Under the pieces are notes generated by a model. That model was given only the letters and a program-made list of their open reading frames with translations, was not told the DNA's origin and did no database searches. A program made the position numbers and the translations under genes. A stretch of 64,000 nucleotides of DNA, from NCBI GenBank assembly GCA_045654345.1, contig JAZOND010000027.1:19889-83888 (forward strand), written 5' to 3'. Each line of letters begins with the position of its first letter. The first letter of the stretch is position 1. The stretch is from Alistipes sp. (GTDB lineage Bacteria; Bacteroidota; Bacteroidia; Bacteroidales; Rikenellaceae). Positions 12,483-28,239 of this stretch are shown in pieces.

Positions 12483-12700
12483 TATGCCTTTGATTTTCAG
12501 GTTAATGGCATATGTGGGGAATATTACCATACCCACAACGGTATCGCATCAGGGCACTACATACAAGGTTGCTGCCATCGGAAACAACACATTTAACCTA
12601 TGCAAGATGCTGACGGATGTAATGCTGCCAGATAGCATTTCAACCATTCCTGTTGGTGTGTTTGAGCGTTGAAATGCATAGCATTGCGCCTGATACTACA
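12483..12700 (+). pseudogene. Decayed BspA-like leucine-rich-repeat (LRR_5) surface protein fragment
   Basis: Frame 3 YAFDFQVNGI (12483-12512) joins out of frame to frame 1 YVGNITIPTTVSHQGTTYKVAAIGNNTFNLCKMLTDVMLPDSISTIPVGVFER*, followed by further stops. Confidence 0.7.
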
Positions 12701-12724
12701 GAGGCGCAGCAGTGAAGGGTTGCC

Positions 12725-12911
12725 AAGGCGAGCCAACGCTCGGCTAAATACGAAATGGACTATGCACATTCCTTGCACCACCCCATTTTATCTTCAGAGT
12801 GCGGTAGTAGGTGTGCATCGTAAAAAATCCCCAGATGGGACATACTAAGCGTATTTCCCATTTGGGGATTTGAGGGATGTGCAGCTAATGCCGCACTATC
12901 ACGATAAAATG
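12725..12911 (+). repeat. Structured dispersed repeat, copy 1 (128-nt long-hairpin core 12784-12911)
   Basis: Long imperfect inverted repeat homologous to 25352-25535. Shared blocks include CAACGCTCGGC, TGCACCAC, TCAGAGTG, GTGCATCGT, AGGGATGTG, CACTATCACG. Confidence 0.85.
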
Positions 12912-14255
12912 CTACTCGAGGCCCTTAAGCTTCTTATACACAGCATTATACTTGGTGTACTTATCCATCACACCTGGCTCCTCACGAAGAAGGAAACATA
13001 CCTCCTTAAGGATCTGAGCGCAGTCTGCGTTCTCAGGGTTGAGCTCGTGTGCCTTCTCGAGGTAAGGGATAGCCTCCATATATACTGAGCGTACACGCTT
13101 ACGCTCTGCCAGGTACTCGTCCTGGCTGGTGAAGCTATCGAGCTTGCTGTTGAACTGACGGTTCTCGTGCTCTGCCTTCTCTACATAGAAGTAGCCGATA
13201 TAGAAGTTAGTGTCATAATCGTTTGGCTTGAGGGTGTCAATCTTCTTGAATGAAGTGATACACTCATCAAAGTTCTTAAGTTTGTAGAACACGCGGCCAC
13301 GACCGAACCAGAGGTCAGTGTTATCCGGAGTCTCAGCAAGGAACTTGTCGATCATAGTTACGAGCTCAGCTGGGTCACCTACGCCCTCCTCAGCAGTGTA
13401 GAGAGACATAAGGCCATCGAGGATACGCTCGTTCTTTGGGAACTTCTCGATACCCTCAAGAAGGATGTTCTTAGCCTTGAGAAGGTTGTCGCGGTTGTCG
13501 TCACGCTGACCATAGTAGCAGTGGAAGAGGTAGTAGTAGATAGTACCATTATCGTCGTTATAGCCAAGCTCGAGAGCCTTGTTCAGATACTGCTCACCGT
13601 CGATGAAGTACTGCTTGTTATCAGCACCGAGGAATGCAGACATCTGACCTGCGTAGTAGTAGTACTTAGCGTCAACGCCCTCATAGAGGCTGCACTCCTG
13701 AATCTTAGCAGCCTTGATAAATGCGTCGATAGCAAGCTCGTAGTCAGGAATAGTGGTGCTAACCTCACCGAGCTGTGAGTAGTAGTTAATAACCAGGTCG
13801 AGTACCGGCTTAACCTTAGCGGTGGTCTTAGGATCGAGCTCGATAGCCTTAGACGCAGCCTCAACGATAACCTCATACAGACCATCCTTAATCTCGCGAG
13901 TCTGCTTCCAAGCCTCTACGCGGCCACCCTTCAAATAAACAGATACCCAAGGGTATACCCAGATCTCACGACCCTGCTCATCCTGATTCTTCTCAGTTGG
14001 AGCGAGCATAGTGTACTGAAGGAATGTTGCATCGAGAGATGTTGACAGAGCCTTTGTTGGCTCCATAAGGGCGTCAGCGTAAACCTTTGCACGATTTACC
14101 CATACTGAAGCCTTTGCAGACTTCTTAGCATCCTTAATCTCGGCATCGCTCTTAGTAAGTTTTGCAAGAGTTGAAGCCTCATTGACTTTCTGTGCAGTAG
14201 CAGCAGGTACAGCGAGTACCAAAGCAGCAGCTACCATCAAGATAAACTTTTTCAT
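12912..14255 (-). CDS. Secreted tetratricopeptide-repeat protein
   Basis: Signal peptide, TPR-like helices (LWFGRGRVFYKLKNFDE, TNFYIGYFY, AIPYLEKAHELNP); directly downstream of gyrA. Confidence 0.8.
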   Translation of the reverse strand: MKKFILMVAAALVLAVPAATAQKVNEASTLAKLTKSDAEIKDAKKSAKASVWVNRAKVYADALMEPTKALSTSLDATFLQYTMLAPTEKNQDEQGREIWVYPWVSVYLKGGRVEAWKQTREIKDGLYEVIVEAASKAIELDPKTTAKVKPVLDLVINYYSQLGEVSTTIPDYELAIDAFIKAAKIQECSLYEGVDAKYYYYAGQMSAFLGADNKQYFIDGEQYLNKALELGYNDDNGTIYYYLFHCYYGQRDDNRDNLLKAKNILLEGIEKFPKNERILDGLMSLYTAEEGVGDPAELVTMIDKFLAETPDNTDLWFGRGRVFYKLKNFDECITSFKKIDTLKPNDYDTNFYIGYFYVEKAEHENRQFNSKLDSFTSQDEYLAERKRVRSVYMEAIPYLEKAHELNPENADCAQILKEVCFLLREEPGVMDKYTKYNAVYKKLKGLE

Positions 14256-14274: not shown

Positions 14275-16845
14275 TTATTGTTCGTTATTTACACTATCTG
14301 TTGTCGGAGCAGTTTCAGCGGTCTGTGTTGTCTCTGCAGTCTCTACAGCCTCTACGCCCTCGATAATCTCGGTCTCCTCCTCGCTCTTTGGCACTGCCAT
14401 AACTGAAGCGATGGTATCGCCCTCGCGCAGGTTGATAATCTTAACACCCTGAGTAGCACGACCCGCAAGGCGAATCTGGTCTACAGCGGTGCGGATAGTA
14501 ATACCTGAGCGGTTGATAATCATCAGGTCGTTCTGGTCGGTTACTGCCTGCAGAGATATCAGCTTACCTGTCTTCTCGGTAATATTGATGGTCTTAACAC
14601 CCTTACCACCGCGGTTGGTAATACGATACTCCTCAAGGTCGGTACGCTTACCGAAGCCATTCTCTGAGAGTACGAGTACATCCTGCTGAGCATCCGGCTC
14701 GATACAAATCATACCGATAGCCTCGTTGCCATCCTCAAGAGCAATACCGCGAACACCCATACTTACACGGCCTACAGGGCGGACAATCTCCTCATTGAAG
14801 CGGATAGCCTTACCCTCGCGTGAAGCGATGAGCACCTCAGCCTTACCACTTGTCAGCTTAGCCTCGATGAGCTGGTCAGACTCGCGGATAACGATTGCAT
14901 TGACACCATTTGCGCGTGGGCGTGAGTAGGCCTCAAGCTTGGTCTTCTTGATAATACCCTCACGAGTACACATAATGATGTAATTGTTGTCAACATACTC
15001 GGCATCATTGAGCTTCTTGCAGTTGATATATGCGCGAACCTTATCATCCGGCTCAATCTGAATGACATTCTGGATAGCTCTTCCCTTAGAAGAACGAGTA
15101 CCCTCAGGAATTTCGTATACCTTAAGCCAATAACAACGACCCTTTTCGGTAAAGAACATCATTGTATTGTGCATAGATGCCACATAGATGTGCTCGATAA
15201 AGTCCTCATCGCGAGTTGCACTACCCTTAGCTCCTACACCACCACGATTCTGTGTGCGGTACTCAGAGAGCGATGTACGCTTGATATAGCCCAGGTGAGA
15301 GATGGTAATTACCATATCCTCATCAGCATAGAAGTCCTCAGGATTAAACTCCTCTGAAGAGTAGACAATCTCTGAACGACGCTCGTCAGCATACTGCTCG
15401 CGAACCTCGATAAGCTCAGCCTTAACGATTGCTAACTGACGCTCTACGCTGCCCAAAATAGCGGTGTACTCTGCAATATTAGCCTCCAGCTGATCACGCT
15501 CTGCAGTGAGCTTGCCGTGCTCAAGGCCTGTCAGGGCACCAAGGCGCATAGCCACGATAGCCGCTGCCTGAAGCTCGCTCAAATCGAAGCGAACCATAAG
15601 GGCCTGGCGTGCATCCTCAGGGGTGCGCTGTGCGCGGATAGTGTGTACAACCTCGTCGATATTGTCCTGCGCGATGAGCAGACCAAGAACAATGTGCAGA
15701 CGATCCTGTGCAACCTTAAGGTCGTGCTGTGTGCGACGAACAACAACCTCGTGACGGTGGTCTACGAAGTGCGCGATAAGCTGCTTGAGGTTAAGAAGCT
15801 CAGGACGACCATTTACAAGGGCAATATTGTTAACAGCAAATGATGACTGGAGCGAAGTGTGCTTGAAGAGCATATTTACAACCACATTGGCAACAGCATC
15901 CTGCTTAAGAAGCACTACCAGACGAACACCATCGCGATCTGATGACTCGTCGTTTACATCGGCAATACCCTCAATCTTACCATCCTTAATCATCTTGCCG
16001 ATAGTGTCGCAAAGCTCATCCTTGCGAACCATATATGGCATCTCGGTAAAGACAATCTGCTGGCGGTTGTTCTTGGTAGTCTCAATCTCGTACTTAGCAC
16101 GAATAACTACGCGGCCACGACCTGTAAGCAGAGCATCCTTAATACCTGCATAGCCATAGAGAATACCACCTGTAGGGAAGTCCGGACCCTTAACAAAGTG
16201 GAGAAGATCCTCACAGAGGCAGTCAGGGTTGTCGATATATGCGCAGCAGGCGTCTACAACCTCTCCCAAATTATGTGGAGCCATATTGGTTGCCATACCT
16301 ACCGCAATACCACTGGCACCATTAACGAGCAGCAACGGAATCTTTGTAGGCAGCACTGTAGGCTCGAGCTCCTCACCATCGAAGTTTGGAGTCCAGTCGA
16401 TAGTCTGCTTGTCGATATCGGCCATAACCTCAGCAGAGATCTTCTGAAGGCGAGCCTCGGTATAACGCATAGCCGCAGGAGAGTCACCGTCCATAGAACC
16501 GAAGTTACCCTGACCATCAACGAGCGGATAGCGCATAGCCCAATGCTGAGCCATACGACACATAGCATCGTACACTGATGAGTCACCGTGCGGGTGGAAC
16601 TTACCGAGTACATCACCCACGATACGGGCTGACTTACGGGTCTCTTTGTCGTGGTAGAGGTGCAGGTGCTCGCTCATATCGAAGAGGATACGACGATGCA
16701 CCGGCTTGAGTCCGTCCCTGACATCAGGCAGGGCACGAGAGACAATTACCGACATCGAGTAGTTGATGTAGGCGGTCTTCATCTGCTCCTCGATATTCAC
16801 TTTATCGATTCTACCGACAAGACCATCATTCTTTTCTAATTCCAT
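14275..16845 (-). CDS. gyrA: DNA gyrase subunit A
   Basis: [29 protein letters not shown], catalytic AAMRYTE, GyrA box QNRGGVG, beta-pinwheel repeats. Confidence 0.97.
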
Positions 16846-25292: not shown

Positions 25293-25424
25293 CACAATTT
25301 GGCGTCAGAGTCTACACGATGAGTATTATCTGCACTTAAAAACTAACTTTTAAGCGAGGATTTTCAACGCTCGGCATAGAAAACAGCGAAGGGCTGTATG
25401 TGCACCACAATTTGGCGTCAGAGT
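25293..25424 (+). repeat. 19-bp exact direct repeat CACAATTTGGCGTCAGAGT
   Basis: Copies at 25293-25311 and 25406-25424; the second is the left end of the structured element. Confidence 0.85.
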
Positions 25425-25535
25425 GGTGTAGTTGCGGTGCATCGTGAAAAAAAGCAGCGACGGATAGTACAAGAAGTACAGCCGTCGCTGATATTTAAGG
25501 GATGTGACGCAAATGCGCCACTATCACGCCAAATT
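25352..25535 (+). repeat. Structured dispersed repeat, copy 2 (127-nt long-hairpin core 25409-25535)
   Basis: Same stem register and length as 12784-12911 with compensatory substitutions; right arm overlaps the rubrerythrin stop codon. Confidence 0.85.
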
Positions 25536-26085
25536 ATTTAAAGTAGCGGTTGTAGAGCCCCTCAAAACCCTTTCCGTGACGAGCCTCATCCTTAGCCATC
25601 TCGTGAACGGTGTCGTGTACGGCGTCGAGGTTCTGCTCCTTAGCCATACGAGCAAGACGGAACTTATCCTCACAAGCACCACTCTCGGCGTTCATACGCT
25701 TGAACAGGTTGGTCTTAGTATCCCAAACTACCTCACCGAGGAGCTCTGCAAACTTTGCAGCGTGCTCTGCCTCCTCCCAAGCGTAACGCTTGTAAGCCTC
25801 AGCAATCTCAGGATAGCCCTCACGGTCTGCCTGACGGCTCATAGCAAGGTACATACCTACCTCGGTGCACTCACCCATAAAGTGGTTCTTAAGACCCTCA
25901 AGCAACTCCGGGCTTGAACCAAGACCATCACCAAGAACATGCTCGGTAGCAAACTCGAGGTTACCGCTCTGCTCCTCAATCTCTACAAACTTATCAGCAG
26001 GAACCTTACAAAGAGGACAACGCTCAGGAGCCTCATTTCCCTCGTGAATATAACCACAAACTGTGCAACGAAATTTCTTATTCAT
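25534..26085 (-). CDS. rbr: Reverse rubrerythrin (N-terminal rubredoxin + ferritin-like diiron domain)
   Basis: CTVCGY..CPLC, then [36 protein letters not shown]. Confidence 0.9.
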
Positions 26086-28153: not shown

Positions 28154-28169
28154 AGTTGAAATCAGTAAT

Positions 28170-28202
28170 TTATTAAGTTTTTATTAAGTTTTTATTAAGT
28201 TT
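28170..28202 (-). repeat. 3 x 11-bp exact tandem repeat (AAACTTAATAA on the coding strand) in a 5' leader
   Basis: TTATTAAGTTT at 28170, 28181 and 28192. Confidence 0.9.
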
Positions 28203-28239
28203 AAATTTTGTTCTTTGCTTAAAAAAGCCCAACAAGCTG

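Follow-up and report, generated by a model that had tools for sequence, protein, structure and literature searches.

Two long palindromes lie within the window analysed here, a 64,000-nt stretch of an Alistipes sp. genome (C27:19889-83888 in an assembly of 2.1 Mb, 28 contigs and 94% completeness). The first stands behind a gene for a TPR-repeat protein and the second behind a gene for rubrerythrin, and both palindromes finish at, or overlap, the stop codon of these minus-strand genes, as an earlier reading of this DNA (the original prediction) had stated. The parts of both loci are collected in Table 1.

Table 1. Palindromic units, associated remnants and neighbouring genes in the window (window coordinates).
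Feature	Position	Strand	Basis or remark
Copy 1, full palindromic unit, type A	12784-12911	+	Fold; alignment with 35 other copies
Copy 1, outer stem	12784-12792 with 12903-12911	+	
Copy 1, conserved mismatched block	TCAGAGTG 12794-12801 with CACTATCA 12894-12901	+	
Copy 1, middle stem	~12798-12819 with 12877-12897	+	
Copy 1, A-run	12822-12827	+	
Copy 1, inner hairpin	12825-12871; apex loop TAAGC 12846-12850	+	
TPR-repeat protein gene, docked gene of copy 1	12912-14255	-	Stop TAG 12912-12914 abuts the unit's last base
gyrA	14275-16845		Upstream of the TPR gene
Distal leader of copy 1, TGCACATTCCTTGCACCACCC	12763-12783	+	Accompanies many copies
Remnant of an older type-B copy	12699-12762	+	blastn match to C11:9009-9052; comparison with type-B copies and left-only fragments
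Copy 2, full palindromic unit	25409-25535	+	Fold; covariance model R1, 127 bits, E 4e-26 (C27:45295-45426)
Copy 2, outer stem	25409-25418 with 25526-25535	+	
Copy 2, A-run	25447-25453	+	
Copy 2, inner hairpin	25455-25490; apex loop 25471-25475	+	
Rubrerythrin gene, docked gene of copy 2	25534-26085	-	Stop TAA 25534-25536 overlaps the unit's last two bases
Older copy displaced by copy 2	25296-25398	+	Sequence; same architecture at 12 other places
Short leader of copy 2, TGTGCACCAC	25399-25408	+	After the displaced older copy

Folded as plus-strand RNA, copy 1 reaches a minimum free energy (MFE) of -70.9 kcal/mol (z -11.3) and copy 2 one of -64.5 kcal/mol (z -10.6), and none of 200 shuffles was equally stable in either case. 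The minus strands reach -53.4 and -52.0 kcal/mol, respectively, which is ~12-17 kcal/mol worse. The claim that both stretches form the same long hairpin is thus borne out, and the shared block, the register of the middle stem and the A-run that it described are all found in both copies. At least six compensatory double changes had been counted between the two copies. Re-derived by hand from a pairwise alignment, they comprise three in the outer stem (A-T to G-C, T-A to G-C and T-A to A-T) and, in the middle stem, no fewer than three (C-G to G-C, A-T to T-A and T-A to G-C). The inner hairpins do differ, as predicted, but they are not of unrelated sequence, as a conserved apex, (G/A)TAC-N5-GTA(C/T), is common to both.

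Homology extending about 60 nt to the left of the hairpins, also part of the original prediction, is real but consists of two separate things: a short distal leader (..TTGCACC..) and what is left of a truncated older copy of a second type, type B, recognizable by CAACGCTCGGC. At copy 1, the remnant reads in the order CAGAG, an inserted module, CAACGCTCGGC, an A-rich run and the left arm of an inner hairpin, and is cut at the apex. At copy 2, positions 25296-25311 correspond to the outer-left sequence AATTTGGCG plus TCAGAGT (18-nt direct repeat with 25407-24); the remnant also contains a small hairpin module, inserted, and a type-B stretch (CAACGCTCGGC...GGGCTGTA), again cut at the apex.

Both window hairpins belong to a family of non-coding palindromic repeats that is dispersed in the DNA of Alistipes-like Rikenellaceae. 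Iterated nhmmer searches of the genome detected 74 copies that do not overlap, of which 40 are full length and the others partial; they occupy 58 sites, and more than one unit is present at 14 of these. A covariance model of the unit, R1, recovers the copies found by nhmmer and scores copy 1 at 129 bits (E 1.6e-26; C27:32671-32801). The original prediction had proposed an ncRNA element present in two copies and had made its case depend on whether others exist; the genome-wide model search turned up many more, and with ~74 copies the two-copy element gives way to a dispersed repeat. The closest pairs of copies are 96-98% identical at unrelated loci.

We refer to the unit as read on the strand antisense to its docked gene as E+, the gene strand being its complement. 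The unit is ~128 nt long and often carries a distal leader of 10-35 nt. In the alignment, the outer stem pairs (A/G)TTTT-NNN-G with C-NNN-AAAA(T/C). At the tips, only TTTT/AAAA is invariant, and the next three bases vary yet stay complementary in every case (ATC/GAT, GTT/AAC, GGC/GCC, CTC/GAG and others). An invariant block follows in which TCAGAG faces CTATCA with two conserved mismatches, C.C and G.A. The middle stem is mainly of type A (GCGGTAGTAGGTGTGCATCG...) or type B (GGGGTAGGTACCACGCTCGG...) and encloses the A-run and an inner hairpin whose arms are variable and whose apex is conserved. One subfamily has the inner module flipped. Across 36 copies, standard pairs make up 96.3% of cells in the paired columns, and both sides change in 16 of the 28 pairs, although cell counts overstate the number of independent events because the copies are related by descent. 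None of 500 shuffles reached the observed pairing, and pairing collapsed to 30-47% when partners were slid by 1-3 columns. These observations agree with the earlier view that structure is preserved rather than sequence, be it by selection or by the way in which the units are copied.

The repeat is patchy within its family and restricted phylogenetically. Of 25 genomes from this GTDB genus, R1 matched 16, among them the complete genome G011; eight had at least 50 matches (strand duplicates counted, among at most 82 scored candidates), and the nine without any match include closed genomes of 3.3 Mb. Among 151 Rikenellaceae genomes from 31 genera, three genera were matched, and none of 16 genomes of other Bacteroidales families was. 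The family had not been recognized in the original prediction, and an Rfam check of the whole window likewise gave no match at the gathering threshold; at E <= 10, there were only chance miRNA and sRNA matches far below gathering scores. Full-text literature searches did not turn up any account of a repeat like this from Alistipes or Bacteroidales. The nearest published candidate is HMP2_4205, a 132 bp palindromic candidate structured RNA found mostly in Bacteroidetes near TPR genes and itself predicted as a Rho-independent terminator (PMC8040213, Fremin & Bhatt 2021). Its size, phylum and TPR neighbour match copy 1, and going by description alone it may be the same thing; dispersal as a repeat, stop docking and strand bias are not described for it in that paper.

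The units end at a characteristic place. In 28 of the 40 full copies, the last base falls between -2 and +1 nt relative to the stop of a long ORF on the opposite strand, and most of the remaining full copies are outer members of head-to-tail pairs. About 40 of the 50 copies with an intact proximal end pass directly from the stop codon into TTTT. Several of the non-docked proximal ends follow the stub of an older unit or a secondary TAA or TGA, and stubs of 6-14 nt left by older units were seen at proximal junctions. The stop codons at the sites (31 TAA, 16 TAG and 3 TGA) follow the usage of the genome (58%, 34% and 7.5%, respectively), which indicates that the unit does not bring its own stop codon. 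No target motif was found upstream of the stop: the last sense codons vary, with a weak enrichment of ..AG. Similarly, no target-site duplication was detected, the mean direct repeat at the boundaries being 1.23 nt compared with 1.17 +/- 0.13 nt for shuffled flanks, and in none of 40 copies did the gene-side 6-mer recur on the distal side; neither a TA nor any other duplication was found. The absence of such duplications, together with the variable arm tips, supports the earlier judgement that the element is not a simple MITE. The docked genes make up roughly 3% of the genes in the genome and include syntenic core genes, namely the TPR gene next to gyrA, rubrerythrin, GAPDH and pgk. Stop-like triplets in non-coding DNA presumably outnumber real stops more than ten-fold (a rough estimate, not computed), so selection alone cannot give 80% exact docking.

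Comparison of orthologous sites indicates insertion. Of 12 close relatives, 8 also have a unit at the stop of the TPR gene, though of differing variants. In more distant ones, an ordinary terminator lies 30-40 nt beyond the stop; the C-terminus and stop position of the TPR orthologues are unchanged with or without the element. In two relatives (L003 and L004), a separate and apparently native terminator hairpin persists downstream of the unit. Since the ancestral stop and native terminator are both kept, the unit was inserted between them. Orthologous sites of the sister species carry different variants or none. Elaborate native terminators, inherited vertically and never mobile, would account for the position at gene 3' ends, for the terminator-like core and for the filled TPR site in most close relatives. 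That reading is already contradicted and retains hardly any credibility: near-identical copies stand behind unrelated genes, 58 sites here contrast with none in nine congeners, empty orthologous sites have ordinary terminators while filled ones keep theirs downstream, and rows of units and displaced remnants exist.

Rows of units are arranged head-to-tail and are not inverted. Of older copies, the distal half survives, severed at the hairpin apex. Such left-only fragments, each with a full copy after it, occur at 12 places besides the window copies and were never found alone. Conversely, about 20 copies retain the gene-proximal end and inner hairpin and lack the distal arm, and some of the apparent fragments are mosaics with other small modules. 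A conserved leader, ..ATTCCTTGCACCGC, directly precedes most copies on E+, and tandem copies are without any leader. In the most similar pairs, homology reaches 26-35 nt on the leader side and ends exactly at the last gene-side base. Four near-identical copies adjoin paralogous genes, and part of the apparent recent copying may therefore be segmental duplication or recombination between copies, not transposition.

A function of the inner module is suggested by its T-run. On the gene strand, 27 of 40 copies have a run of at least five T after the inner hairpin, compared with 9 of 40 on E+, and a simple terminator scan flags copy 1 on the minus strand; about a third of the copies are without a good T-run. 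The features of an intrinsic terminator, a G+C-rich hairpin and a T-run on the sense strand, are present by sequence, and the inner hairpin with its T-run probably ends the transcript of the docked gene, in line with the original prediction that it doubles as the terminator of the convergent gene. Between convergent genes lie 26 of 54 sites (48%), compared with 22% for leading-strand genes generally, a 2.2-fold enrichment. If transcripts do end there, the mRNA would hold the proximal arm and inner hairpin only, and the sense transcript would then not account for the long hairpin.

The long hairpin folds better on the other strand. Opposed positions on E+ in the 40 full copies include 191 G.T compared with 37 A.C (P = 3e-26). 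With RNA parameters, E+ gives the more stable fold in 39 of 40 copies, and with DNA parameters it does so in all 40, so that the strand-specific pairing predicted from two copies extends to the family. E+ sits on the C-rich strand, and the wobble asymmetry is opposite to that expected from compositional skew; the constraint thus acts on a single-stranded form of E+ polarity. One candidate for this form is RNA. The units could be structured RNA genes on E+, encoding either a cis-antisense or 3'-end RNA acting on the docked mRNA or a family of processed small RNAs, and the covarying stems, the conserved leader before the hairpin, the advantage of ~13 kcal/mol for E+ and the G.U wobbles, which pair solely on E+, would all fit. 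G.T pairs are tolerated in DNA hairpins too, however. Moreover, the leader shows no evident promoter in a sigma-70-type scan or, by eye, a Bacteroidetes -7 motif (TAnnTTTG), and tandem copies have no leader. The nine copies with the E+ T-run (mainly type B) could halt an E+ transcript midway, and public metatranscriptome contigs, which are of mixed species, without strand information and uninformative over the unit, gave no clear signal. We consider an RNA gene improbable, also because it predicts neither the distal-half remnants nor the 97% replication-strand bias of the units.

This bias is nearly complete and is the chief new clue. The docked gene is on the G-rich (leading) strand for 72 of 74 copies and, judged by local 50-kb skew, at 56 of 58 sites, compared with 54% of 1,496 gene proxies in the genome (56/58 sites vs 54%: P = 7e-13), and the well-folding E+ strand is thereby on the leading-strand template. 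Both exceptions are partial, degenerate copies. Within contigs, units are uniformly oriented, in keeping with GC skew, also on contigs with balanced gene orientation (C25, 114 vs 101 genes; C15, 61 vs 65). Skew and orientation are the same on both sides of dnaA; since no skew switch coincides with this gene, it was rejected as an origin marker. A second species (G014) shows the same preference: 7 of the 8 units located on contig C7 conform, as do 33 of 35 in those 20-kb pieces whose |skew| is >= 0.02. The local test performs poorly in G127, a more distantly related complete genome with weak skew that is noisy at 20 kb; 12 of 19 copies fit there, and orientation is still regionally uniform with two switch points. 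For comparison, the orientation of SPRITE, BOX and RUP repeats merely mirrors the coding bias of ~61-63% (PMC3049150).

Preserved hairpins with a replication-strand bias, in tandem and clustered units without target-site duplication, are also what would be expected of REPIN- or PATE-like hairpins moved by an HUH Y1 transposase (RAYT or IS200/IS605 TnpA) encoded elsewhere, as the original prediction had offered. This explanation is largely refuted. The RAYT/IS200 TnpA profile PF01797 had no match in this genome (94% complete) or in six relatives (G003, G008, G010, G012, G013 and G014) that carry 53 to at least 82 copies each, while the same search was positive in eight of nine genomes of other families and in six control genomes. 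In addition, the fold-competent strand is on the leading-strand template, the opposite of the lagging-strand template that IS200/IS605 elements reportedly prefer. Genes bracketed by inverted units were also considered as mobility enzymes, and the two orientation exceptions create the only such brackets. One bracket, near pgk and rplQ, holds an ordinary XerC/D-like recombinase and a membrane protein and was unconvincing; a second encloses ordinary metabolic genes and was equally so, leaving the Xer-like region as the sole inverted-unit-flanked gene to be named. Among the nhmmer matches, no longer element with the same ends was found, although MAGs often lose IS copies.

The leading-strand template leads to another class of folded single-stranded sites. 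The units could be attC-like or IMEX-like sites (the latter from integrative elements exploiting Xer) for a tyrosine recombinase, either host Xer or another integrase. An outer stem, mismatched spacer, inner stem and variable terminal structure in ~128 nt, strand-specific folding and a start at the stop of the preceding ORF all resemble attC, and so does the recombinogenic-looking strand on the leading-strand template, where it is reportedly located in chromosomal integrons as well. The RYYYAAC/GTTRRRY cores are absent, however, the units trail syntenic core genes rather than cassettes, and the integron integrase IntI was not detected above the TIGR02249 cut-off in any of 25 genomes. We regard such sites as very unlikely.

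A retroelement would combine RNA with copying. In a SINE-like scheme, reverse transcription would begin at the A-rich 3' end of an E+ RNA, at a nick by the stop codon; alternatively, the cDNA of such an RNA would pair with the lagging-strand template, much as oligonucleotides do in recombineering. The RNA-type wobbles on E+ would be explained, as would the precise 3' docking with a ragged 5' end and the ~20 copies that keep the stop-proximal (E+ 3') end with variable 5' loss. The bias would fit as well, since E+ cDNA could anneal solely at places whose gene strand serves as lagging-strand template. Further, hairpin-copying UG27 reverse transcriptases occur in Alistipes and Bacteroides (bioRxiv 10.64898/2026.09.22.753630), although the alignment of units shows neither of their motifs, AUC-N7-UANAG and UUYA. 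The PF00078 search found a single reverse transcriptase (RT) in the genome, and it belongs to a DGR cassette (target gene, avd, template repeat and RT). The RT lies ~1.2 kb from one repeat site. RT presence does not track copy number, as four of six high-copy relatives have no RT match and some zero-copy genomes have one, and many of the '5'-truncated' copies are really mosaics with other modules. Taken together, these points make a retroelement highly unlikely.

The reading that we prefer, with a probability of roughly 0.6, is that of an undescribed REP/ERIC/SPRITE-like terminator repeat that is copied by a replication-linked mechanism on folded single strands. Under this model, the inner module would have been co-opted as the terminator of the docked gene, and termination by the inner hairpin and T-run would let copies persist at the ends of transcription units, hence their enrichment between convergent genes. 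The long hairpin would be needed in a single-stranded E+ nucleic acid, most likely folded ssDNA handled during replication, given that orientation follows the replication strand rather than gene density. The folded strand may be recognized through the asymmetric C.C and G.A mismatches of the TCAGAG/CTATCA block, and DNA-level copying would act on, or be filtered by, the folded single strand at the replication fork. New copies would arise by copy-and-replace, precise on the stop-codon side and imprecise on the distal side. Once established, docking could be perpetuated as a resident unit is replaced by another, with the proximal break falling within the conserved TTTT.

A bolder version, which we hold to be unlikely while giving it some weight, is that the units are mobile elements that home in a gene-polar manner to the first base after the stop of leading-strand genes via the folded antisense single strand, carried by host replication and repair or by an undiscovered enzyme. 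We know of no described bacterial transposition system with this target. If homing were true, the element would read translation and transcription polarity as well as replication polarity. Were the docking mechanistic, it would represent a new targeting principle, with possible uses as a tool for tagging gene 3' ends and as a marker of replication direction in draft genomes.

Returning to the terminator repeat that we favour, its relationship to known systems can be described on two levels. By analogy, it appears closest in function to SPRITE, and closest in logic to folded-ssDNA sites (REP/RAYT substrates and attC), the latter in view of structure conserved over sequence, asymmetric mismatches, a single folding strand and replication polarity. 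SPRITE is a small dispersed repeat with a long stem, a terminator-like T-rich tract and AAAA/TTTT termini; it is found near coding-sequence 3' ends, enriched between convergent genes and restricted to one species group, and no target-site duplication or transposase has been identified for it (PMC3049150). The Alistipes repeat shares the dispersal, the long stem with a T tract, the AAAA/TTTT ends, the position near coding-sequence 3' ends, the convergent-gene enrichment and the lack of a known transposase or target-site duplication, a likeness that makes a class by function, not by homology. There is no sequence relationship and the phylum is another; ~63% of SPRITEs compared with 97% of the Alistipes units respect the leading strand, and stop docking, covarying subfamilies and one-strand folding are not reported for SPRITE.

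REP, BIME and REPIN sequences are likewise extragenic palindromes in 3' untranslated regions, often near stops, with clusters, mosaics and conserved structure. Their active form is presumably an ssDNA hairpin; REPs are ~20-40 nt long, and REPINs are doublets. The Alistipes repeat, in contrast, is a single 128-nt hairpin that nests a terminator, forms head-to-tail rows, has no Y1 transposase, docks with nucleotide precision and has a near-total replication-strand bias. ERIC/IRU (127 nt) and the Neisseria Correia elements resemble it as imperfect palindromes of ~125-155 nt that are transcribed or intergenic and have effects on transcripts. A blastn search (word size 11, E <= 1) of the unit against 5,426 complete E. 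coli genomes gave no match that would indicate similarity to ERIC/IRU, and Correia elements have a TA target-site duplication whereas the Alistipes repeat has none. To our knowledge, neither is stop-codon-docked or replication-strand-polar. Sites of the attC class (e.g. the ~125-nt Vibrio cholerae repeats) share the conserved structure, single folding strand, asymmetric unpaired bases, variable terminal structure, start at the stop of the preceding ORF and folding strand on the leading-strand template; they differ in having R''/R' cores, cassette arrays and IntI, whereas the Alistipes repeat follows conserved core genes.

Repeats such as REP, ERIC, BOX, Correia and SPRITE shape transcription, mRNA stability and genome plasticity and, as far as we know, small palindromic repeats have been known almost only from Proteobacteria and Firmicutes. 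Here, a family of this kind is abundant in a major gut genus and joins three traits not reported together elsewhere: stop-precise docking, near-total restriction to leading-strand genes and a covarying strand-specific structure without a known transposase. The repeat also breaks metagenome assemblies at gene 3' ends and is liable to be mistaken for a novel ncRNA. In four metagenomes in which strain polymorphism was looked for, the configuration is unchanged and contigs are interrupted at the apex.

Four paralogous genes of the studied genome G000, all outside the window, encode PEGA-domain proteins resembling targets of diversity-generating retroelements (DGRs), and share the promoter region TATATTTG. 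Immediately upstream of each is a hairpin unit, nearly identical in all four cases; the upstream gene on which the unit is docked, starting at its stop codon, differs each time. Because every paralogue directly follows such a unit, the units may mediate segmental duplication or recombination. A complete DGR cassette is present at locus L092 of the same genome; directly after it come a gene for GAPDH and a pair of hairpin units.

The units themselves vary in their modules. In one subfamily the inner module is flipped, so that the T-run precedes the hairpin and the A-run comes after it, whichever strand is read; in this orientation the module cannot serve either strand as a terminator. Some type-B units carry a 35-nt module, CAGAGGCGNAGCAGYGAAGGGTYGCCAARGCGAGC, in place of the proximal portion of their left middle arm. 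A further palindromic module of small size, CCTCGCTTAAAA-N7-TTTTAAG, has been inserted into arms of old units. At two loci from relatives (L002 and L033), the stop-codon position is instead taken by a related element with the outer stem ATCGCATTTTAAG/CTTAAAATGCGAT. On the distal side of several units, the short repeat (T)TGGCTATTAGCCATTGGC recurs and is followed by a terminator-like hairpin, CATCCGC-N4-GCGGATA.

Positions of the features in the window, in G000 (contigs C1 to C25) and at loci from relatives (L002 to L011)
Feature	Position	Remarks
PEGA-domain paralogues	C15:~7230; C4:~69670; C22:~73850; C20:~8450	
DGR cassette	C23:12-2729	
DGR target gene	within cassette	PEGA/FGE-type; C-terminal end ...AVRAVLALD
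avd-like ORF	within cassette	114 aa
Template repeat	within cassette	many AAC codons
Reverse transcriptase	within cassette	
Units with flipped module	C16:3499; C23:26090; C23:26222; C23:40053	
35-nt module	window 12699-12733; C11:9009-9041	
Palindromic module	window 25333-25359; L002, L005, L008, L011	
Distal repeat	flanks of C16:3499, C1:296561, C1:121266, C23:40053; L003, L004	
dnaA	C25:102357-102845	
11-nt tandem repeat	window 28169-28212	three copies

No GC-skew switch occurs at dnaA: its flanks show uniformly negative skew over ~100 kb in one direction and ~190 kb in the other; therefore, oriC of this genome probably lies elsewhere. Within the window, the 11-nt unit TTTATTAAGTT is repeated in tandem.
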